NCBI GenBank assembly: GCA_964579775.1
Contig: CAZOGP010000004.1
Coordinates: 4,752 to 24,238 of the forward strand
Reading direction: 5' to 3'
Length of the DNA stretch: 19,487 bases
Source: an uncultured Candidatus Saccharibacteria bacterium
Lineage (GTDB): Bacteria; Patescibacteriota; Minisyncoccia; Portnoybacterales; GWB1-42-6
The translations under genes and the position numbers were made by a program. A model generated the notes under the pieces. The model did not search any database, was not told the DNA's origin, and saw only the letters and a list, made by a program, of their open reading frames with translations. This document shows, piece after piece, positions 2 through 19,487 of this stretch (the stretch's first letter is position 1; each line of letters begins with the position of its first letter).

Positions 2-922
2 ACGCTGGAATGGGACGGCGCGGCGCTGAAAGAAAGTATAATTGACGGCGGCACGCCGGGGCGGCAAAATAGTGTTTCAAATTCCGCTGGCGCCCCCAGC
101 GCCGCGCCGAGCGACTCCCCTGCTCCCACGAACGTGGCCACGGCCTCGGCGACCCCCGCGCCGGGGTATCAGTACTCCCAGAAAATTTTTATCAACGAAT
201 TTATGCCTTGGCCGGAGACAGGAGCTAAAGAATGGGTGGAAATTATTAATTTAGACGACACCGCGATTAATCTCTCCGGCTGGCAAATTGATGATGCCAA
301 TGCTTCAACCTCGGCCCAAGCGCTGCCGGCCGACACGGTTATCGCGCCGGGTGAATTTTTAGTTATCTCTTTCAATAAAAATGTTTTAAATAATAACGAC
401 GGCGATAAAGTCCGGCTACTGTGGCCGGACGACCAAGCGGTACACGCGGTCTTATACAAGAAAGCCACCCAGAGCCAAGCCGCGGCCAAATTTGATAACG
501 GCTGGCTCTGGACCAACCGGCCAACGCCAGGCCTTGCCAACAAAAAATCTTCCGTTGGGAACAACGAGGAACTCTCTTTGGCGAACGCGTCAGTTAACAA
601 TGCCCAAGTCGTGACAACCGAAGAGACAGTAACATCCCCGGCCAGCGCGCCAGCGCGAACCGCAACGCAACCAACCAGAACACCAACACCCGTGGCCGTG
701 GCCGCCGCGACTCCGACAAACACCGCGTCAAGCAATGCCGAGGCGCTGTCTAATAATATAAACCTGACCGCCGCGGCTGGCGAACCACTCGCGAAAAATT
801 TTAATTCAAACCCGTTTTTAGCGCTTGGCGGTGTAGTTTTGCTAGCCGCGCTGGCCGCCGGCGGACTGATTTATTTCCGCCGATTATCTAAGCCTGTTGA
901 CGATTCCAGTTTTGACGATTAA
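2..922 (+). CDS. Lamin-tail-domain (LTD) surface protein, 5'-partial, with Thr/Pro/Ala-rich linker and C-terminal membrane anchor
   Basis: The frame is open from nt 2 with no stop. The track ORF starts at GTG 134 and has no signal peptide, so the gene probably continues upstream. FINEFMPWPETGAKEWVEIINL..INLSGWQIDD..PGEFLVI..NNNDGDKVRLLWPDD fits the LTD pattern. A low-complexity TPTPVAVAAATPT linker is followed by a hydrophobic C-terminus, FLALGGVVLLAALAAGGLIYFRRL. Confidence 0.7.
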   Translation, partial: TLEWDGAALKESIIDGGTPGRQNSVSNSAGAPSAAPSDSPAPTNVATASATPAPGYQYSQKIFINEFMPWPETGAKEWVEIINLDDTAINLSGWQIDDANASTSAQALPADTVIAPGEFLVISFNKNVLNNNDGDKVRLLWPDDQAVHAVLYKKATQSQAAAKFDNGWLWTNRPTPGLANKKSSVGNNEELSLANASVNNAQVVTTEETVTSPASAPARTATQPTRTPTPVAVAAATPTNTASSNAEALSNNINLTAAAGEPLAKNFNSNPFLALGGVVLLAALAAGGLIYFRRLSKPVDDSSFDD

Positions 923-5565: not shown

Positions 5566-5665
5566 AATAAAATTTACCGGATAACAACCCGAAAAACTCA
5601 TAGTCCCATACACTGGACTATAGGACTATAAATTATTTTCTTTTATCTGGTCTCCGCCTTTCACC

Positions 5666-5706
5666 AAAAAAACCGCCCGGAGCGTAGTCGAGGGGGCGGT
5701 TTTTTA
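5666..5706. terminator. Bidirectional intrinsic terminator between convergent PBP and dciA genes
   Basis: AAAAAAACCGCCC-ggagcgtagtcgaggg-GGGCGGTTTTTT: a GC stem flanked by an A-run and a T-run. Confidence 0.6.
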
Positions 5707-6000
5707 ACTGACGAAACTTATTTTTTCTACTCTTACCCAGCTATTCCTTCGCCTAACCTCTTCCAGAATCCTTAACTCCCTTAATTTAAGTTCACTCGCC
5801 CAAACAGAATTCAGGCAATCAACCATCAAAACTTCATTTTTCAAATTGATCACTTTCGATTTATTCTTGAATTTATCGCCGGCTATCTTTTGTAAAATAT
5901 CATCCCAGTCATTCTTAAGCTCGGCGAAGCGCCAAATCCGTTCTAGCCCCAGACTTTTTATTTTATTTGGGATAACCCAGGCAATTGAAGTCCAGCTCAT
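5704..6000 (-). CDS. dciA: DUF721/DciA-family protein (putative replicative helicase operator)
   Basis: 98 aa. W..DILQKIAGDKF..SKVINLKNEVLMVDCLNSVWASELKLRELRILEEV fits the DUF721 pattern (W..ivG...s.p..l..g.L.V.v.ssvWa.EL). The start lies 1 nt after the dnaN stop, which is the classical dnaA-dnaN-dciA position. Confidence 0.7.
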   Translation of the reverse strand: MSWTSIAWVIPNKIKSLGLERIWRFAELKNDWDDILQKIAGDKFKNKSKVINLKNEVLMVDCLNSVWASELKLRELRILEEVRRRNSWVRVEKISFVS

Positions 6001-6001
6001 T

Positions 6002-7102
6002 TTAATTAGCCTTGATCGGCATTACGAGATATATGTAAGACTCATCTCCGATCGGCCTGAAAACAGCGGGGTTGGAGTCCGAATTCATCCCTAAAAACAC
6101 CTGCTTAGTTCCAATATTAGCCAATCCTTCCAGCAAATAACGGTAGTTAAAGCTAATCTCGACTTTTTTACCTTTGGTCTCCGCCTTGATCTGTGATTTA
6201 TTCTCTCCCAGATCCGGGTCTTGTGACAAAACTTCAACCAGCCCTTCACCCAAAGAAACTTTTATATTATTAGTTTTACTGCTAAAAACCGAGGCGGCGC
6301 GAATAATGTTTAATAGTTCTGCTTTGTCAATTGTCGCCTGCGTAGAAAAATTTTTAGGAACGATTTGTTGATAGTCCGGATACTGCCCTTCAATTAACCG
6401 GGAAATAACCTGCGCGTCCCCGCCGTCAAATAAAATCTGCCCTGCCCCCAGATAAATTTTCATTTCCCCTTCTCTTTCGCCCAATATCCTAATTATCTCT
6501 TGGGCTGTTTTTTGCGGCACGATCAAAGACCTAATCTCGTCTGATTTTTTATTAGTCTCAAATATTATTTTTTCGGCCAAGCGAAAGCTGTCGGTCGCGG
6601 CTAGTTTCAGTTCTTTTTTCTCAAATTTAAACAGCACGCCGGTTATTTCCGGTCGGGACTCGGAAAGAGAAGCCAACCCCACCACCTTCAATAAGGCGTC
6701 TTTTAAAACGCTGTTTTTAATTTCAATTAGCGCTTCGCCGTCTATTTTGGGAATAATCGGAAAATCGTCCGCCGATAAACCGTTTAGCGTCGCCCGGTAA
6801 TTATCGCATTTTATGACCAAATTATTACCCCTAACCTCCAGTTCTATTTTTTTATTCGGCAAATTATTAATAAAACCGGTTAGCACCTTGGCGGGACAGG
6901 TTATTGCTCCATTTTTTTCAATTTTCCCAGAAGTCCAAGTGTTGATGCCAATTTCCAGGTTGGTCGAAGAAATCTTTAAGCGACCCTCTTTGGTGGCCAG
7001 TAAAACATTATTCAAGATTGGCAACGTCAAGTTCCGGCCAATAATATTTTGGGTTAGATTTAAACTATTTTTTAAGTTTTCCTGAAGGCAGGTGATTTTC
7101 AT
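6002..7102 (-). CDS. dnaN: DNA polymerase III beta sliding clamp
   Basis: 366 aa. N-terminus MKITCLQENLKNSLNLTQNIIGRNLTLPILNNVLL is typical, with C-terminal PAVFRP...YIYLVMPI. It lies immediately downstream of dnaA. Confidence 0.92.
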   Translation of the reverse strand: MKITCLQENLKNSLNLTQNIIGRNLTLPILNNVLLATKEGRLKISSTNLEIGINTWTSGKIEKNGAITCPAKVLTGFINNLPNKKIELEVRGNNLVIKCDNYRATLNGLSADDFPIIPKIDGEALIEIKNSVLKDALLKVVGLASLSESRPEITGVLFKFEKKELKLAATDSFRLAEKIIFETNKKSDEIRSLIVPQKTAQEIIRILGEREGEMKIYLGAGQILFDGGDAQVISRLIEGQYPDYQQIVPKNFSTQATIDKAELLNIIRAASVFSSKTNNIKVSLGEGLVEVLSQDPDLGENKSQIKAETKGKKVEISFNYRYLLEGLANIGTKQVFLGMNSDSNPAVFRPIGDESYIYLVMPIKAN

Positions 7103-13820: not shown

Positions 13821-15213
13821 TCTGCAAACAAACTGGCAATTCGTAATTTTGTTTATCGGCCTTTTGGCCGCGGCTATTATCAACTGGAGAAAACCAGGTT
13901 GCGGCGCCTGGCTGATATTTTTTTTGTCGCCGCTTTATCTGTTAAAAATCGGCAATTGGCCCTTAACTGTCCTGGAGGCGCTGATGTGGTTGTTTATAGG
14001 AGTCTGGCTGGTAAGAAAAGTAAAAAATAGTTGTCATCCCGGGCTTGACCCGGGATCCAGGCCCTGGATTCCCGCCCTTCTTGCATCAGGATCTATGACT
14101 TGCGCGGGAATGACAAGAGGGGTTATTACCAAAGTAATCAAGAACGATATTTTTCTACCACCTTTACTGATTTTAGCTGGCGTTTTTATCTCCGCCGTCT
14201 TTTCGCCCGACCCGAAAACTGGCTTGGGTATTTTAAAATCCTGGTTCTTGGCCCCGATGATTTTTGCTTTTATTCTAAGAGATATTTTTGAGGGCGGTGG
14301 TTTAAAAGAAATGTTTTCGGCGCTATTTGTTTCTTCGGCCGCGGTGGCGGCAATAAGTTTTGTTTATTTGGCGTCCGGACATTTGACTTTTGACGGCCGT
14401 TTAACGGCTTTTTATCTGTCTCCCAATCACCTGGCTATGTATCTGGCGCCGGGGTTGCTGGTCGGCTTGGCTTTATGGTCGGACGCGAAAAAAACACACC
14501 AAAGAATCTTATTGTTTATTGGTTATTGTTTATTGGCTACTGTTTTATACGCCACTTATTCTTTTGGCGCCTGGCTTGGTCTGGCCGCGGCCGCGGTTTT
14601 AATTTTATTTTATCTTTGGCGTTTAAAATTAATGAGCCGTCGTCAATTGTTAATGGTTATTTGTTTATCGGTAATTTTATTTATATTTGTGCTTGGCCAG
14701 CAGTTGTTCGACGTAAATAACGATAAGCTATCTAATCTATTCTCCTCTCCCCGCTCCTCCTGGCAATCGCGCCTGATGGTCTGGCAGGCGGCTACCCAGA
14801 TCTTAAAAGACCACGGGTTTCTAGGGATCGGGCCGGGGCTGTTCCAGAACTATTATTTGGAGTACCAGCAATATTTTTCTGTGCCGTATTTGGAGTGGGC
14901 CGTGCCCCAGCCCCATAATTTATTTTTGGCCTGGTGGCTGCAAGCGGGCCTGGCAGGGTTGGTTGGTTTCTTTTGGCTACTGATAGTTTTTTTCCGACGG
15001 GGATTCAAGACACTAAAAAAACCCTCCTTCGTCCCACTAGGCGGGACTTCGGAGGGCAAGCAAAATCACCTCTGGATCATTATTTTAATGGCCGTAATGA
15101 CGTATTTTTTGGTCCACGGTCTAGTCGATACTACTTTCTGGAAAAATGACCTGGCGCTGATCTGGTGGGTTATTGTATTTTTAGGCTCCAGAGCAGGCCG
15201 TCGCGTTTATTGA
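13810..15213 (+). CDS. O-antigen ligase family (Wzy_C domain) membrane protein, paralog 2, carrying an intragenic palindromic repeat
   Basis: Polytopic membrane protein. Motifs are YSFGAWLGLAAAAVLILF, GIGPGLFQNYY and PHNLFLAWWLQAGLAGLVGFFWLL. It overlaps the preceding gene by 11 nt. Confidence 0.8.
   Translation: MFYSLQTNWQFVILFIGLLAAAIINWRKPGCGAWLIFFLSPLYLLKIGNWPLTVLEALMWLFIGVWLVRKVKNSCHPGLDPGSRPWIPALLASGSMTCAGMTRGVITKVIKNDIFLPPLLILAGVFISAVFSPDPKTGLGILKSWFLAPMIFAFILRDIFEGGGLKEMFSALFVSSAAVAAISFVYLASGHLTFDGRLTAFYLSPNHLAMYLAPGLLVGLALWSDAKKTHQRILLFIGYCLLATVLYATYSFGAWLGLAAAAVLILFYLWRLKLMSRRQLLMVICLSVILFIFVLGQQLFDVNNDKLSNLFSSPRSSWQSRLMVWQAATQILKDHGFLGIGPGLFQNYYLEYQQYFSVPYLEWAVPQPHNLFLAWWLQAGLAGLVGFFWLLIVFFRRGFKTLKKPSFVPLGGTSEGKQNHLWIIILMAVMTYFLVHGLVDTTFWKNDLALIWWVIVFLGSRAGRRVY
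14033..14116. repeat. Palindromic repeat family copy C, inside CDS 13810-15213
   Basis: TGTCATCCCGGGCTTGACCCGGGATCCAG (14033-14061) and CTGGATTCCCGC...GCGGGAATGACA (14065-14116). The region is translated as CHPGLDPGSRPWIPALLASGSMTCAGMT. Confidence 0.8.
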
Positions 15214-16366
15214 CGAAAAATAAGTAATCTTCTTTGGGCGAAAGAAATAATTCCTGGGCGTCAAAGCCGACCTGATCGGAAGAACCCAGGATTTTTGTTT
15301 TGGCGTTGGTTTCCAGGTTTATTTTGTAGAAATCATCCGCCAGGATGACCAGGCCCTTATAATAGTCATCCGGCCAGACGGCATTAGCCGATAGCTCTTG
15401 CGGCAGGGCGCAGAAGATCGTCCGGTCGTCGCTTGCCCAGACGCATTTATCCGCCAGGCCGCTAAGCTTTAAGTCTTTGGCATTGGCGCCGATGCCGTCC
15501 GTTAATGACAGGCCTGGGTTTTGGCCGCGGTCGTTAGTCGAGGAGAAAAGTATTTTATCGGCCCGAGGGGACCATTTAACACTTAAACCAAAGAGGTCGC
15601 TGAGCGCCCGGGAAAAGTCGCCGGTGGTTGAATTCAGAGCGTAAAGCAGGCCTTGCGCCAGGCCGCTGGGGGGCTGGCGCAGAGAGATTTTTTCTTTAAT
15701 GGGCCACTCCACGATCAAATTATCCAGGCGGGTCTTAAAAATATTTGCCCAACCGGAACCATCGGGGTTGGCCACACTGATATTGTGCTGGCCGGTGGCA
15801 GAGTCAATAAAATGATAGGCGATCTTTTTGCTGTCGGGCGACCAGGCCACCGAACCCATTTTTTCATTGAGGAGCGAAGACTGATTGTTGGTGTAGTCGT
15901 AAAAATATTTTTTAAGTTGATTGTTATCAGAAAAAAATCCAATGACCTTGGTTTTATCCGGCGACCAGAGCGCTTTGATCAAGCCGTTCAATGTCGTGGA
16001 CGAGATTTTTTTAAGGCTGGCGCCCAGGAAATCAGATTCCCAGACATTGCCGTTGGCGCGGGTGAAATACTTAACGGTTTTGCCGTCTTCTCCAATGGTT
16101 GGCGCCAGGACCGGCTCTTTGCTGATAGCTTTAATTTTTGAGGCCGTTTGGCCTGGGCTGATGCTTTGGTTGGCGCCGCTTCCCGGCAAGAACGATGAAC
16201 CGCCAGTAGTTTGTCCCGCGCCGGGTGAGGCGGAGGGCAGGCTGCCGCCCTGCTCCGTTTCTCCGCCCGGAGCGGTTGATTTAAAAAAGAAATTATAAAC
16301 TAACAGCGAGCCCAGCGATAGGACCAATAAGATTGAGGCGATGATGAGGATTTTTTTAGTGTTCAT
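15170..16366 (-). CDS. Membrane-anchored TolB-like beta-propeller (PD40/WD40-like repeat) protein
   Basis: N-terminal TM KILIIASILLVLSLGSLLVYNFFF, then a Gly/Ser/Pro-rich linker. Repeated WSPD-type blades are ALWSPDKTKVIGF, VAWSPDSKKIAYHF, VKWSPRADKILFSS and CVWASDDRTIFCA. Confidence 0.75.
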   Translation of the reverse strand: MNTKKILIIASILLVLSLGSLLVYNFFFKSTAPGGETEQGGSLPSASPGAGQTTGGSSFLPGSGANQSISPGQTASKIKAISKEPVLAPTIGEDGKTVKYFTRANGNVWESDFLGASLKKISSTTLNGLIKALWSPDKTKVIGFFSDNNQLKKYFYDYTNNQSSLLNEKMGSVAWSPDSKKIAYHFIDSATGQHNISVANPDGSGWANIFKTRLDNLIVEWPIKEKISLRQPPSGLAQGLLYALNSTTGDFSRALSDLFGLSVKWSPRADKILFSSTNDRGQNPGLSLTDGIGANAKDLKLSGLADKCVWASDDRTIFCALPQELSANAVWPDDYYKGLVILADDFYKINLETNAKTKILGSSDQVGFDAQELFLSPKEDYLFFVNKRDGLLWSLKIQ

Positions 16367-16407: not shown

Positions 16408-17076
16408 TTATTGGCAGGACGTACTGTCTGGGACGGACCTGGCAATACAGTTGGCCACCCCAAAAAAAAGCGGGCAAGCGTCTTTTGTTTTGTAGCAATT
16501 ATTTTTATCACACCAGCAAGTTTTAATTTTTTCCGTAGCAGGCGGCGGCCCCTGGCAATAGCAGCTATTGTTTTCAGCGGTAAATACGATGGGATTTGGC
16601 GCACACTTAGCGGTGCAGGCCTCTATGGTGGTTTGTTTAGTCAAGTAGGTTTGAGGCGTGACTGACGGTGATGCCGGCGCGGCGACATTGCCGAGCGGAG
16701 AAATTGATGGCGATAAATTCGTCAAACTCGGGTCAATGGTGGCCAAGATCAGCCAGGAACAGAGCAGCAAGGCGATGCCCATCAGCGCGCCAACGATCCA
16801 GTCTTTAGCCTTTTGCGTAGTCCCAACGGACGGGGCCAGCATGTAATTTATCCCGCCCCAAACAATCGCGCCCACCGCCAGGAACCCGGCCAGGGATAAA
16901 CCGAAAATGAATAGATACCGGACATAGACGCCGGGGTCGGAGACGATTGGGGAGGTCATGCCGGGTAGACTAATTTCAACTTTGTAGGCGGCGTGTCCAA
17001 TAGTCGCGTAGAAAAGTAAAGATAAAGCCTCGAAGATAGTTAGAAAAATTTTTTTATGATTTGAAAATAAATTCAT
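16408..17076 (-). CDS. Exported VirB2/TrbC-like two-helix pilin module fused to a 99-aa, 10-cysteine C-terminal domain
   Basis: Signal peptide with GHA|A. Hydrophobic hairpin YLFIFGLSLAGFLAVGAIVWGGINYM - APSVGTTQKAKDW - IVGALMGIALLLCSWLILATI. The C-terminus holds 10 Cys (EACTAKC..SCYC..TCWC..NNC..DAC..ANC..STC). Confidence 0.65.
   Translation of the reverse strand: MNLFSNHKKIFLTIFEALSLLFYATIGHAAYKVEISLPGMTSPIVSDPGVYVRYLFIFGLSLAGFLAVGAIVWGGINYMLAPSVGTTQKAKDWIVGALMGIALLLCSWLILATIDPSLTNLSPSISPLGNVAAPASPSVTPQTYLTKQTTIEACTAKCAPNPIVFTAENNSCYCQGPPPATEKIKTCWCDKNNCYKTKDACPLFFGVANCIARSVPDSTSCQ
16709..16968. repeat. 260-bp direct repeat, copy 1 (100% identical to 17673-17932)
   Basis: Base-by-base comparison shows identity from GGCGATAAATTCG... 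to ...CATGCCGGGTAG. The flanks diverge immediately on both sides. Confidence 0.95.
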
Positions 17077-17107
17077 TTTGGTTTTGGCCTCGTAGTTGAG
17101 CGATTAC

Positions 17108-17159
17108 CTGGATTCCCGCCGGAGTTTACCCCGTACTTGATACGGGGCGGGAATGACAG
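17108..17159. repeat. Palindromic repeat family copy D, intercistronic between the two pilin-like genes
   Basis: CTGGATTCCCGCCGGAGTTTACCCCGTACTTGATACGGGGCGGGAATGACAG forms a nested hairpin (ATTCCCGCC/GGCGGGAAT outer, CCCCGTA/TACGGGG inner). It is near-identical to 12665-12717. Confidence 0.8.
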
Positions 17160-17170
17160 AAGGCCTTACT

Positions 17171-18055
17171 TTAGACGCAATTGGCTTTAACACTGTAATG
17201 GATGTGGTCGGTGTGGCTGGCGCAGCTTTTGCTTTTTGAAGCGTTTTGTCCCCCGCCGGCGCGGCAGTATTGGGGAAATCCGGCGTAGAATAGCTGGTCA
17301 ACGCATTTGTCTTGACTTAACGTTTGCATAACTTGCTGTTTTTGAGAGTCGTTTAAATTAGAAACCCGGATATCGGCCGCTCTCCCCGTGCAGTGGGTGG
17401 ATGAGCCGCAAGCGGCGCCCGGCACGCAGGTGTCAGTCGCAGAACAACCGTGGCTGCCTGTTGTTTCAGTTATTGTAACTTCAACCGGAAGCGAACCAAG
17501 ATCTTTTACCAGGGTGTTGTTTACTTGTCCGGTTTGAATGTCTTGGCAAATCTTGGCGGTTTTGCATTTTATTTCTTGCGCGCCGGTTATGGGCGGGGTG
17601 ACAGCTCCCTCTGTTAGGCCGGAATCCGGGGGGCTTGGAGGTTCGGGGACGGTTACGATTTCTAATTGGGTGGGCGATAAATTCGTCAAACTCGGGTCAA
17701 TGGTGGCCAAGATCAGCCAGGAACAGAGCAGCAAGGCGATGCCCATCAGCGCGCCAACGATCCAGTCTTTAGCCTTTTGCGTAGTCCCAACGGACGGGGC
17801 CAGCATGTAATTTATCCCGCCCCAAACAATCGCGCCCACCGCCAGGAACCCGGCCAGGGATAAACCGAAAATGAATAGATACCGGACATAGACGCCGGGG
17901 TCGGAGACGATTGGGGAGGTCATGCCGGGTAGTTTTATCTCTAGCGTATAGGCCAGGGCACTTGGAGCGATAAAAAAAATAACAGATAATAGGCTTAAGA
18001 AAATAAATTTTAATTTTAGAAGAGTCTTTAGCAAGAAGGTTTTACTTAATTTCAA
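17171..18055 (-). CDS. Exported VirB2/TrbC-like pilin module fused to a Hedgehog/DD-peptidase-fold (LAS, peptidase M15-like) zinc hydrolase domain
   Basis: Signal peptide with ALA|Y and the same 87-aa two-helix module as 16408-17076, then a Pro-rich linker PEPPSPPDSG. The C-terminal domain has VEVTITETTGSHG...STHCTGRAADIRV (S-x-H-x-x-G-x-A-x-D, i.e. H-x6-D) and DHIHYSVKA (H-x-H). The start is TTG at 18055, with no in-frame ATG before residue 45. Confidence 0.7.
   Translation of the reverse strand: MKLSKTFLLKTLLKLKFIFLSLLSVIFFIAPSALAYTLEIKLPGMTSPIVSDPGVYVRYLFIFGLSLAGFLAVGAIVWGGINYMLAPSVGTTQKAKDWIVGALMGIALLLCSWLILATIDPSLTNLSPTQLEIVTVPEPPSPPDSGLTEGAVTPPITGAQEIKCKTAKICQDIQTGQVNNTLVKDLGSLPVEVTITETTGSHGCSATDTCVPGAACGSSTHCTGRAADIRVSNLNDSQKQQVMQTLSQDKCVDQLFYAGFPQYCRAGGGQNASKSKSCASHTDHIHYSVKANCV
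17673..17932. repeat. 260-bp direct repeat, copy 2 (100% identical to 16709-16968)
   Basis: See copy 1. The offset between copies is exactly 964 nt. Confidence 0.95.
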
Positions 18056-18788
18056 CGCTTAAATTAGCCGTAGATTGCTGCAGTTGGTCGGCTTTATTTT
18101 GAATAAAGAGCGACAGGTCTTTAAAAATAGACGCCGATAAATTGCCGGCGGGAATTTTTATTGTCAGCTGGTTGGGATTTTTTTCATCAAGCGTGTCTAA
18201 AATTTGTCTGTCTATCGCCCAGCTGAAAGCTAAGTCGGCGATATTTTGAGTGTTGAAAAACAGAGGCTCGGCCAGCAGGGTCAGGTTCTGGCCGGTGGCG
18301 GCGATTAGCGAGTCTTGCGCGGCATAGTTGCTGTTGGTAGTTTTAAATAAGATCTGGGGGCTGGCGATCTTTATGGTTAAAAATCCCCGCCAGATAATCT
18401 TTTCTTGGCTGTCTAATATTTGAGATTCTATTTCATGGTCGTCCCCGCCCCACTTGGTGGTTCGGAACTGAAACGACGACCTGCCTATGCCTTGCGCCGA
18501 ATACATAATTTCGTTATCCAGGAGCCAGCGATAATAGAGCGCGTCGGGATTTTGGGAGAGTTTTTTGGTCGGCAAAACCGCCACTTTTATGGTGCTGCCG
18601 CGCGAAGGCAGAGCCTTGCCTTCATAATCCAGCGGCACATAAGAATTGCTGGACCAGGTAAGCAGGAAATCATTGTCAACGGCGCGGGCGACGGGAGGCG
18701 CTGCCAGCGCGAAATAAAGTCCGGCCACAATGAGAAGGATTATTAATAAAGAGTTAACAGAGGTAGATTTTTTTAATAGATTGAACAT
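18042..18788 (-). CDS. Exported hypothetical protein with two tandem beta-rich domains
   Basis: Signal/anchor SLLIILLIVAGLYFALAAPPVARA|VD. The halves share the pattern [ST]xIxVxxxP...[YF]xWxxDxxI (STIKVAVLP..YYRWLLDNEI versus QNLTLLAEP..AFSWAIDRQI). The stop overlaps the next gene's start by 14 nt. Confidence 0.6.
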   Translation of the reverse strand: MFNLLKKSTSVNSLLIILLIVAGLYFALAAPPVARAVDNDFLLTWSSNSYVPLDYEGKALPSRGSTIKVAVLPTKKLSQNPDALYYRWLLDNEIMYSAQGIGRSSFQFRTTKWGGDDHEIESQILDSQEKIIWRGFLTIKIASPQILFKTTNSNYAAQDSLIAATGQNLTLLAEPLFFNTQNIADLAFSWAIDRQILDTLDEKNPNQLTIKIPAGNLSASIFKDLSLFIQNKADQLQQSTANLSVEIK

Positions 18789-18964: not shown

Positions 18965-19444
18965 TTATATTTGTTGATTTTTTAACATTTTATTGGCCAT
19001 CGCTAGACCGCCGGGGTTTTTCATGGCGTCATAGACTTGGGCCGCCGCCTTCTTTTTAATGTAAGAGTAGACGACTATGCCGATATTGCTGGGCAGGATG
19101 CCTAAAGATACAACGTCTATAATTTTGGCCACGATAAAAGTAAGTATCGGGTCAAGCTTGGGATTATAACCTTTTTGCCACCAGCCAAAAATCAGGCCGG
19201 CCAGGGTTTCAGTGAATAGATTAATTATGGGAATAAGTCCGATTAAGTCAAACAAGGCGGCTAAACACAGCATCTCCCAGGGAAAAGAAGCGGGCTCGGG
19301 CGGAGCGATGGGCCGCTCGGACGACTCGGTTTGCCTGGCGCGGTCTCCTTCTGTCTGCTGGGCTTGTCGGGTTTTATCTCGCTCGGACCGTTGGGCTTGC
19401 CGGCTGCGGTCCTCTTCAAATTGTTGTTGGTAGTTGTCGGGCAT
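18965..19444 (-). CDS. Hypothetical membrane protein with charged 11-aa repeat N-terminus
   Basis: The N-terminus has three repeats, RSRQAQRSERD / KTRQAQQTEGD / RARQTESSERP. Hydrophobic segments follow: MLCLAALFDLIGLIPIINLF, LAGLIFGWW and IIDVVSLGILPSNIGIVVYSYI. The ATG at 19444 is preferred over the track's TTG at 19468. Confidence 0.55.
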   Translation of the reverse strand: MPDNYQQQFEEDRSRQAQRSERDKTRQAQQTEGDRARQTESSERPIAPPEPASFPWEMLCLAALFDLIGLIPIINLFTETLAGLIFGWWQKGYNPKLDPILTFIVAKIIDVVSLGILPSNIGIVVYSYIKKKAAAQVYDAMKNPGGLAMANKMLKNQQI

Positions 19445-19487
19445 GAGTTCATTTAAACATTTAAACAATTTAACAACTTAACAAAAT

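Follow-up and report, generated by a model that had tools for sequence, protein, structure and literature searches.

A tiny uncultured bacterium of Parcubacteria type encodes, inside a type IV secretion system (T4SS) gene cluster, a protein in which a VirB2-like pilin module is joined to a zinc-peptidase-like domain of the LAS (Hedgehog/DD-peptidase-fold) superfamily. The gene lies on the minus strand at 17171..18055 of a 19,487 bp stretch of contig CAZOGP010000004.1 (the window, by which we mean the whole stretch of DNA analysed), and its 294 residue product is laid out as a signal peptide, a two-helix VirB2-like pilin module, a Pro-rich linker and a 137 aa Cys-rich C-terminal domain. Our preferred reading, to which we give roughly even credence, is that this protein is a pilin-tethered, extracytoplasmic, zinc-dependent peptidoglycan peptidase that would provide the T4SS with a VirB1-like local wall-opening activity. 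A preliminary description of this DNA, made from its letters alone, had recognised a LAS-type zinc-hydrolase signature behind a pilin-like segment and proposed that the enzyme might remodel the cell's own wall for a surface machine or attack the wall of a host; the T4SS-operon context and the swapping of enzymes in relatives are new beyond that description, and both strengthen its functional idea.

The coding sequence, taken from the open reading frame (ORF) list of the window, starts at a TTG codon located inside the end of the upstream gene (a 14 nt overlap) and ends with a stop codon at 17171-17173. Its minus-strand translation ends ...VEVTITETTGSHGCSATDTCVPGAACGSSTHCTGRAADIRVSNLND...CASHTDHIHYSVKANCV, letter for letter the C-terminal peptide quoted in the preliminary description, whose interval (17174-17503) corresponds to residues 185-294 and whose residue numbering holds for the TTG-start ORF (codons for H221 at 17393-17395, D228 at 17372-17374, and H286 at 17198-17200). 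The public gene call for the same protein (P0001, 250 aa) begins at M45 and leaves out the signal peptide (window 17921-18055, minus strand). The longer TTG-start form, already adopted in the preliminary description, is favoured because it is supported by the alignment of homologues (n=16, 41-100% identity); the start of P0001 is probably a database start-codon mis-annotation, and the exact start of the TTG form may be a few codons off.

The C-terminal LAS-type domain

The domain occupies residues 158-294 (17174..17584; all features within this gene are on the minus strand), contains 10 Cys, and was recognised by Pfam, by profile searches, and by AlphaFold2 (AF2) modelling followed by Foldseek. 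Motif 1, S219-T-H221-C-T-G-R-A-A-D228 (17372..17401), has the form S-x-H-x-x-G-x-A-x-D and aligns to SLHYEGRAVD in Sonic hedgehog (Shh), of which the His and Asp bind zinc (PMC6027127). Judged by conservation and by this alignment, H221 and D228 are predicted to be zinc ligands 1 and 2. Motif 2, H281-T-D-H284-I-H286 (17198..17215; H-x-x-H-x-H), was identified by conservation, alignment to Shh, and its position in the last beta-strand of the AF2 model; it contains the predicted third ligand, H286, and in H284 and H281 two candidate catalytic or second-shell residues. The three ligands would meet at one metal site, as suggested by their alignment to the zinc ligands of Shh. A further segment, T-E197-T-T-G-S-H202 (17450..17467), stands at the end of the first core strand and was aligned with TEGWDEDGHH of Shh by both hmmsearch and hhalign; the close family has E197 and H202 throughout, and distant members lack the TE yet retain a His 6 residues before zinc ligand 1.

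The arrangement of S-x-H-x-x-G-x-A-x-D (containing H-x6-D) followed by H-x-H, on which the preliminary description had based its assignment, holds up in each of these comparisons and is not a chance motif, a possibility rejected on the basis of shuffling and conservation. The strict pattern arose in none of 20,000 shuffles of the 137 aa domain, and a loose version (H-x6-D followed by H-x-H) in 0.56% of them. The protein contains only five His (H202, H221, H281, H284, H286), all within the C-terminal domain. Among 15 full-length homologues H202, H221 and D228 are invariant, and H281, H284 and H286 are missing solely from one truncated sequence; across 14 diverse members, including relatives of 25-34% identity, S219, H221, A226, D228, H281, H284 and H286 are all invariant (alignment A3, the family alignment plus the distant members P0045 and P0047-P0050). 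Cysteines are lost across homologues in pairs (164/170, 204/222, 210/216, 251/293, with 264/278 remaining), a pattern that argues for five disulfides and hence for an extracytoplasmic location, for which the signal peptide and two transmembrane helices also argue.

Homology of this domain to the LAS superfamily is established by convergent sequence and structure comparisons. Recurrent Pfam matches are confined to the M15-type, VanY, Hedgehog and Extensin-like_C families, all of which we take to belong to Pfam peptidase clan MD: Peptidase_M15_3 matches 12 of 12 family members (best E 3.9e-5), VanY seven (best E 0.023), HH_signal four (best E 0.001), Extensin-like_C three, Peptidase_M15_4 two (best E 0.049), and Peptidase_M15_2 one. 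For the window protein itself, the Peptidase_M15_3 score was 18.0 bits at full length and 19.9 bits with the domain alone, short of the cutoff of 23.2; Extensin-like_C was likewise sub-threshold, and the gathering thresholds of VanY and Peptidase_M15_4 were not reached. The expectation that LAS, M15 and Hedgehog profiles would recognise this protein is therefore borne out as to superfamily, in that every match falls into one, and not as to family, in that all matches of the window protein lie below curated cutoffs.

Searched against PDB sequences, the A3 profile retrieved 23 distinct Hedgehog N-domain sequences first (E 1.3e-5 to 0.016); an unrelated fumarate reductase turned up among the next, non-significant matches (E 0.5-1.1), along with an L-Ala-D-Glu endopeptidase, an M15C peptidase and VldE. 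A single-sequence phmmer search with the whole protein found nothing among PDB sequences, so that family profiles alone gave matches. Alignment of A3 to the N-terminal domain of human Shh (ShhN) by hhalign gave 95.3% probability and E 2.1e-8, with ~30% identity over 88 columns; it pairs STHCTGRAADI with SLHYEGRAVDI and DHIHYSVKAN with AHIHCSVKAE (window and Shh, respectively) as well as the TE, with the zinc ligands aligned. The resemblance to Hedgehog that had been noticed by eye is thus recovered by two profile methods.

Modelled alone from 12 homologues, residues 158-294 gave an AF2 structure with pLDDT 91.5 and pTM 0.86, whose core runs from strand VTITE through a long loop to strand AADIR (with D228), a helix, strand DQLFY, and strand HIHYSV (with H284 and H286); the strands are at 193-197, 226-230, 252-256 and 284-289, and the helix at 236-247. 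This agrees with the LAS fold, in which a central antiparallel beta-sheet bears the ligands and helices pack against one side of it. The top 50 Foldseek matches in the PDB are all LAS enzymes or Hedgehog proteins, among them MepA, Shh/Ihh/Dhh, VldE, the Streptomyces Zn DD-peptidase 1lbu, Ply500, LysECD7, ChiX and LysB4, as anticipated by the suggestion that the fold be compared with Shh-N and the Zn DD-carboxypeptidase, at modest scores. Predicted viral structures (BFVD) matched better (E 7.9e-5 to 1e-2, TMq up to 0.57, prob 1.0), and comprised multi-domain phage cell wall hydrolases, 'Peptidase M15A C-terminal' proteins, and virion-associated tape-measure lysin domains.

The domain is rare. 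A HMMER scan of 1.84 billion representative proteins returned 13 at E<=1e-3, one of which (P0046) looks like a spurious repeat match, and a locus search with alignment A2 found it in 3 of 185,579 species genomes. The distant members P0045 and P0047-P0050 are without the Cys-rich insert. Because no curated threshold is reached and only ~13 representatives exist, the domain appears to be best filed as a new, rare, disulfide-rich subfamily of the LAS superfamily. Membership of VanY, of Peptidase_M15_3 proper, or of the bacterial Hedgehog-like proteins (bacHh) was rejected, since neither their thresholds nor their defining residues are matched. The fusion of pilin module to LAS domain also occurs in the distant P0045, P0048 and P0049, a recurrence that points to a fusion that is either old or recurrent.

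Among characterised groups, Peptidase M15A/Peptidase_M15_3 gives the best Pfam and BFVD matches and shares the S-x-H-x-x-G-x-A-x-D motif and the C-terminal His motif; the window domain differs from it in a 16 residue Cys-rich insert between H202 and S219 (in the close family) and five predicted disulfides, in addition to its sub-threshold score. ShhN provides the only significant sequence matches of solved structure, and its TE...H...SxHxxGRAxDI...HIHxSVKA blocks and its strand and helix order align, but the calcium ligands and E177 of Shh are not conserved across the window family. In contrast to the ~30% identity seen here, bacHh proteins exceed 50% identity to ShhN (PMC6027127). MepA, the Streptomyces albus Zn DD-peptidase, VldE, Ply500, ChiX and LysB4 are characterised LAS peptidases that share the H-x6-D plus H-x-H zinc arrangement and act on peptidoglycan stems or cross-links; at TM 0.35-0.5 and 13-20% identity, however, their substrate specificity is not transferable to the window domain. 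A disulfide-rich LAS subfamily whose nearest solved sequence relatives are animal Hedgehog proteins is a data point on the bacterial ancestry of the Hedgehog fold, and the domain is also a candidate scaffold for a small secreted lysin.

The pilin module, its operon slot and its cargo

The N-terminal 35 residues form a predicted Sec-type signal peptide (17951..18055; ...PSALA|YTLE), recognised from hydropathy (maximum centred on residues 16-31), an AF2 helix at 5-33, and comparison with homologues, in which an A-x-A | Y/A-x-L-E junction is kept; cleavage would probably follow PSALA. Residues 36-128 (17672..17950) make up the VirB2-like pilin module, consisting of two hydrophobic helices (53-89 and 93-119 in AF2) separated by a short, conserved basic KAK loop (QKAKD). 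The full-length protein has three hydrophobic segments by hydropathy, and its AF2 model (pLDDT 76.5) places helices at 5-33, 53-89 and 93-119, the latter two as a hairpin. From this arrangement the topology would be N-terminus out after cleavage, loop in, and C-terminal domain out. A Pro/Ser-rich linker follows at residues 129-157 (17585..17671; TQLEIVTVPEPPSPPDSGLTEGAVTPPIT), appearing flexible in the full-length AF2 model, with pLDDT <50 over residues 127-136 and a lack of secondary structure over 124-149, and differing in length between homologues.

Assignment of the module to the T4SS_pilin family (PF18895) is accepted on transitive evidence, drawn from profile links, topology and genomic context in place of a match to a solved pilin. 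The window protein scores 22.9 bits against PF18895, under the cutoff of 26.6, its relative P0049 scores 28.3 bits, and the family is detected in 9 of 15 homologues at E<=0.01. With a profile built from the module (A4), 473 proteins were retrieved at E<=1e-8; most of those listed are 100-180 aa long, PF18895 is a precomputed assignment for many of them, and some bear the name 'VirB2 component (pilin)'. A search with the single module sequence produced just eight short matches, where the profile search did work. Against PDB sequences the module profile found nothing significant (best match the conjugative pilin 7jsv, E 0.94), and Foldseek with the full-length model yielded no significant pilin match, its top entries being histidine-kinase helices and similar structures at E>0.6. 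The 'pilin-like anchor' of the preliminary description can thus be named, from profile matches, as a probable PF18895 module.

Right after the second pilin helix is the sequence I-D-P-x-L-T-N-L-S-P (17690-17719, minus strand, residues 119-128), which is conserved whatever the cargo (LAS, YkuD, SLT or Cys-rich). Its role may be no more than to cap the pilin fold. TrbC/VirB2 pilins undergo C-terminal processing, and by analogy the cargo could be released by processing at this site.

Synteny places the fusion gene in a conserved, oriC-proximal T4SS operon. In four related loci (L001-L004) the order is three large proteins, PrgI (VirB3-like), a TraC-like protein, VirB4, a small membrane protein, a ~247 aa protein, and the pilin fusion, continuing with an optional second pilin, a propeller protein, two Wzy proteins, flippase, jag, yidC, (yidD, rnpA,) dnaA and dnaN; VirB4, PrgI and the TraC-like gene are located 2-5 genes upstream of the fusion. 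The window gene order agrees with this. Because the small membrane protein is directly downstream of VirB4 in the relatives, the window appears to end one gene short of VirB4, and adjacency to VirB4 is suggested here by synteny. A T4SS cluster near dnaA, close to oriC, has been described for Paceibacteria (PMC12102498).

The same pilin module (~60-75% identical) carries different cargo in related proteins. It is joined to a YkuD domain in P0024, P0025, P0027 and P0030, to an SLT/Lysozyme_like domain in P0019, P0032 and P0037, and in other related pilins (including P0021 and P0035) to Cys-rich tails in which no domain is recognisable; Pfam identified no cargo domain in ten further pilin-fusion relatives whose tails are unassigned. 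Because the A4 matches listed are mainly short, these examples are not a census of C-terminal cargo types. Replacement is also seen at the operon slot itself: L004 has a pilin-YkuD gene exactly where the pilin-LAS gene lies in the other loci, L001 has a pilin-LAS gene followed by a pilin-SLT gene, and the one pilin detected near the T4SS of L003 is a LAS fusion. The pilin-SLT gene of L001 (10876-11650, plus strand) is broken by a run of N, which hides the fusion in the annotation, the public call listing a 120 aa SLT fragment only. An HMM scan of the fetched loci showed that every T4SS locus has one or two pilin genes, all of them extended at the C-terminus, and detected no bare pilin within 10 kb in any locus.

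In the window, the pilin-LAS gene is followed by a second pilin gene (16408..17076, minus strand, 222 aa) with the same pilin module and a different, Cys-rich C-terminal tail (16408-16700, minus strand, ~95 aa; …CTAKCAPNPIVFTAENNSCYCQG…CWCDKNNCYKTKDACPLFFGVANCIARSVPDSTSCQ) that has no significant family match. The two modules form a 281 nt direct repeat of 97% identity (16709-16989 and 17673-17953), while the tails beyond it are unrelated. Such a pattern points to duplication or gene conversion in the recent past, and the repeat is a ready substrate for recombinational exchange of C-terminal cargo. That the LAS pilin and its Cys-rich neighbour are a toxin-immunity pair was considered and rejected, as L003 has the LAS pilin without a second pilin.

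Proposed role at the cell wall

Of the Patescibacterial T4SS it has been written that its role is 'completely unknown', and in the single species tested the system is essential (PMC11665869; PMC10633639). Enzymes built onto a pilin, with the type swapped at a fixed slot, offer a testable answer to how such a machine crosses the wall, and the swapped enzymes point to peptidoglycan as what these pilins touch. In the literature on T4SS and Patescibacteria that we consulted, a subset of the literature as a whole, we found no mention of a pilin fused to a wall enzyme or of enzyme swapping at one slot.

In the mechanism we propose, the Sec signal peptide would be removed, and the two hydrophobic helices would lie in the membrane as a hairpin, its KAK loop on the cytoplasmic side, while the ~30 residue Pro-rich linker would keep the enzyme domain in the wall zone. 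H221, D228 and H286 would coordinate a zinc ion for the activation of water, with H284, H281 and H202 as candidate general base or transition-state residues, and the bond cut by the enzyme would be a peptide bond of peptidoglycan stems or cross-links. The wall attacked would be at least the cell's own, at the site of machine assembly, and also a partner's if the pilin polymerised. In a minimal version that does without a pilus, the hairpin anchor and linker would place the enzyme in the cell's own wall.

Evidence of several kinds argues for this reading. Peptidoglycan is the putative substrate because a YkuD domain fills the same slot in L004, an SLT domain is carried by the second pilin of L001, and SLT/Lysozyme_like or YkuD domains occur on the module elsewhere; a class A penicillin-binding protein encoded in the window implies that the cell makes peptidoglycan. 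Catalytic competence is suggested by the seven motif residues that remain invariant down to 25% identity. A local wall-opening role is suggested by three lines of evidence: the enzyme type is replaceable by other peptidoglycan-active domains, a peptidase and a glycosidase are carried by adjacent pilins in L001, and most Patescibacteria with VirB2-like pilins are without a VirB1 homologue (PMC12102498).

The proposed role has precedents in which separate proteins do the work. VirB1, PrgK of pCF10 and TraG of pIP501 are likewise encoded in T4SS clusters and proposed to open the wall locally, and the LAS pilin beside an SLT pilin in L001 recalls the glycosidase-plus-peptidase pairing of Gram-positive VirB1 proteins (PMC12102498). 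Those enzymes have SLT/CHAP folds and stand alone, whereas here a LAS domain is fused to a pilin, so the analogy is functional only. The VirB2-like pilin arrays of Southlakia epibionticum and TM7x (PF18895) share the N-terminal family, a T4SS cluster near dnaA, and a tandem second pilin; the pilins described there are short and bare, whereas each pilin in our loci has an enzymatic or Cys-rich C-terminal domain.

Confidence in a wall-opening peptidase must be tempered by several observations that weigh against it. The C-terminal domain reaches no curated family threshold, HH_signal gave no match to the window protein at E<=1, and the Foldseek scores against the PDB are weak (E>=7e-3, TM 0.35-0.5). 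No conserved counterpart of the general-base glutamate (Shh E177, VanX-type) is present across the family alignment, so catalysis would have to rely on histidines; histidine-based catalysis is known in MepA and the Streptomyces DD-peptidase. The example of Hedgehog suggests that an intact LAS zinc site can serve binding and not wall hydrolysis. YkuD domains are usually transpeptidases, not hydrolases, so the theme shared by the swapped domains may be peptidoglycan remodelling or attachment and not cutting. Finally, because the window stops before VirB4, membership of the fusion gene in the T4SS operon is suggested by synteny in its relatives.

The alternative that survives best turns the same enzyme outward. 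In it, a VirB2-type filament would display enzymes as a 'lytic pilus' that digests the wall of a host or partner from outside, as phage tail lysins do, and the swappable domains would be polymorphic, host-matched effectors; we take this seriously while considering it unlikely. The closest viral structural matches of the domain are virion-associated lysin domains of tape-measure and tail proteins, which attack walls from outside and, like the window protein, append a wall-cutting domain to a filament- or needle-forming protein, although the window domain is fused to a T4SS pilin instead of a phage tail protein. Between close genomes the cargo varies (LAS, YkuD, SLT, Cys-rich) while the pilin module stays 60-75% identical, and the 97% DNA identity of the two modules in the window completes a pattern typical of host-interaction modules. 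That the only pilin near the T4SS of L003 bears a LAS domain, with no bare pilin nearby at any locus, also favours it, as does the speculation in reviews that the T4SS pilus of Patescibacteria connects the cell to its host as a conduit (PMC12857230).

On the other side, an extension of 170 residues per subunit may not fit the helical packing of VirB2-type pili. To our knowledge, F pilin has been made to display short peptides only. Most PF18895 matches listed are bare, at 100-180 aa, so that the fused ones could be non-polymerising derivatives, and the module has no significant match to solved pilins (7jsv at E 0.94 being the best). Many hosts of Parcubacteria may be without peptidoglycan, no host is known for this lineage, and no immunity-like gene is consistently adjacent.

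A more comprehensive form of this idea, which we offer tentatively and hold to be somewhat more doubtful still, would make the pilin module a modular carrier that polymerises into the T4SS filament and displays swappable wall enzymes together with Cys-rich binding modules, forming a 'lytic pilus' that bores through both the host's wall and that of the cell itself. Cassettes would be exchanged by recombination across the near-identical modules, in a manner likened to polymorphic toxin or phage tail-fibre systems.

It is improbable, in our view, that the domain is a non-catalytic ligand-binding or adhesin module whose LAS zinc cleft would bind a stem peptide or host surface molecule in Hedgehog fashion. 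Its best sequence matches of solved structure are indeed Hedgehog signalling domains, whose zinc site is often called pseudo-active (PMC6027127); it has no conserved glutamate general base; and the neighbouring and related pilins bear Cys-rich tails without enzyme signature that resemble binding modules. But three zinc ligands and two more His are invariant at 25% identity, as expected for catalysis, and in relatives its place is taken by catalytic peptidoglycan enzymes (SLT/lysozyme-like, YkuD). Characterised bacterial and phage LAS domains, moreover, are hydrolases.

A housekeeping VanY/DD- or LD-carboxypeptidase-like trimming enzyme, using a pilin-derived hairpin as a mere anchor and having no tie to the T4SS, would suit the adjoining wall and envelope genes (PBP1A, flippase, two Wzy_C proteins), the weak VanY and Peptidase_M15_4 matches, and the lack of an unambiguous T4SS core gene inside the window itself, but is very improbable given that four independent loci preserve the slot directly behind the VirB4-proximal genes, that the start of the gene overlaps an upstream cluster gene, that the domain is extremely rare (13 representatives in 1.84 billion proteins, 3 of 185,579 species genomes), and that non-equivalent enzymes fill the slot in sister genomes.

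Neighbouring genes and minor observations

The window is a chromosomal origin region containing YebC, RuvC, PBP1A, dnaN, dnaA, yidC, jag, a flippase and two Wzy_C proteins, and then, on the minus strand, a TolB-like propeller, the two pilin genes, a 248 aa protein and a 167 aa membrane protein; NCBIfam gave no useful name for these last five genes. Immediately upstream of the fusion gene is the T4SS-cluster gene for the 248 aa protein (18042..18788, minus strand), which has an N-terminal membrane anchor, is predicted to be extracellular, and was assigned to the cluster by synteny: its position in L001-L004 is taken by a gene of 224-249 aa, the product of which, in L001, shows visible homology. 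Beyond it, the 167 aa membrane protein (18965..19468, minus strand) has a charged N-terminal tail and is similar to a 138 aa protein of L001 (FPW...WWQK...LPSN). Both genes are always found between VirB4 and the pilin genes in relatives, and neither product had a Pfam or NCBIfam match.

The last gene of the block encodes a 398 aa membrane-anchored TolB-like/PD40 beta-propeller (15170..16366, minus strand), recognised by NCBIfam propeller_TolB (E 3.2e-7, yet far below the NCBIfam cutoff) and a weak PD40 match. A beta-propeller is present at the same position in all four loci, L001-L004. It is an odd partner for a monoderm T4SS.

The spacer between the two pilin genes (17077-17170, minus strand) can form a stem-loop with a minimum free energy of -33.1 kcal/mol (z -2.7, no shuffle being equally stable), which is not followed by a U-run. 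The structure could serve RNA processing or stability, or it could terminate transcription in part and so fix the relative amounts of the two pilins.

Two further observations were made in passing. In L004, a 128 aa gene (5655-6041, plus strand) with 23S_rRNA_IVP and bAvd-like Pfam matches is inserted between PrgI and the TraC-like gene; bAvd is an accessory protein of diversity-generating retroelements. At the other end of the window, a 262 aa protein (134-922, plus strand) has a Lamin Tail Domain (LTD, E 1.8e-15) and, after it, a mucin-like low-complexity region, and is probably a surface protein unrelated to the pilin-LAS fusion.

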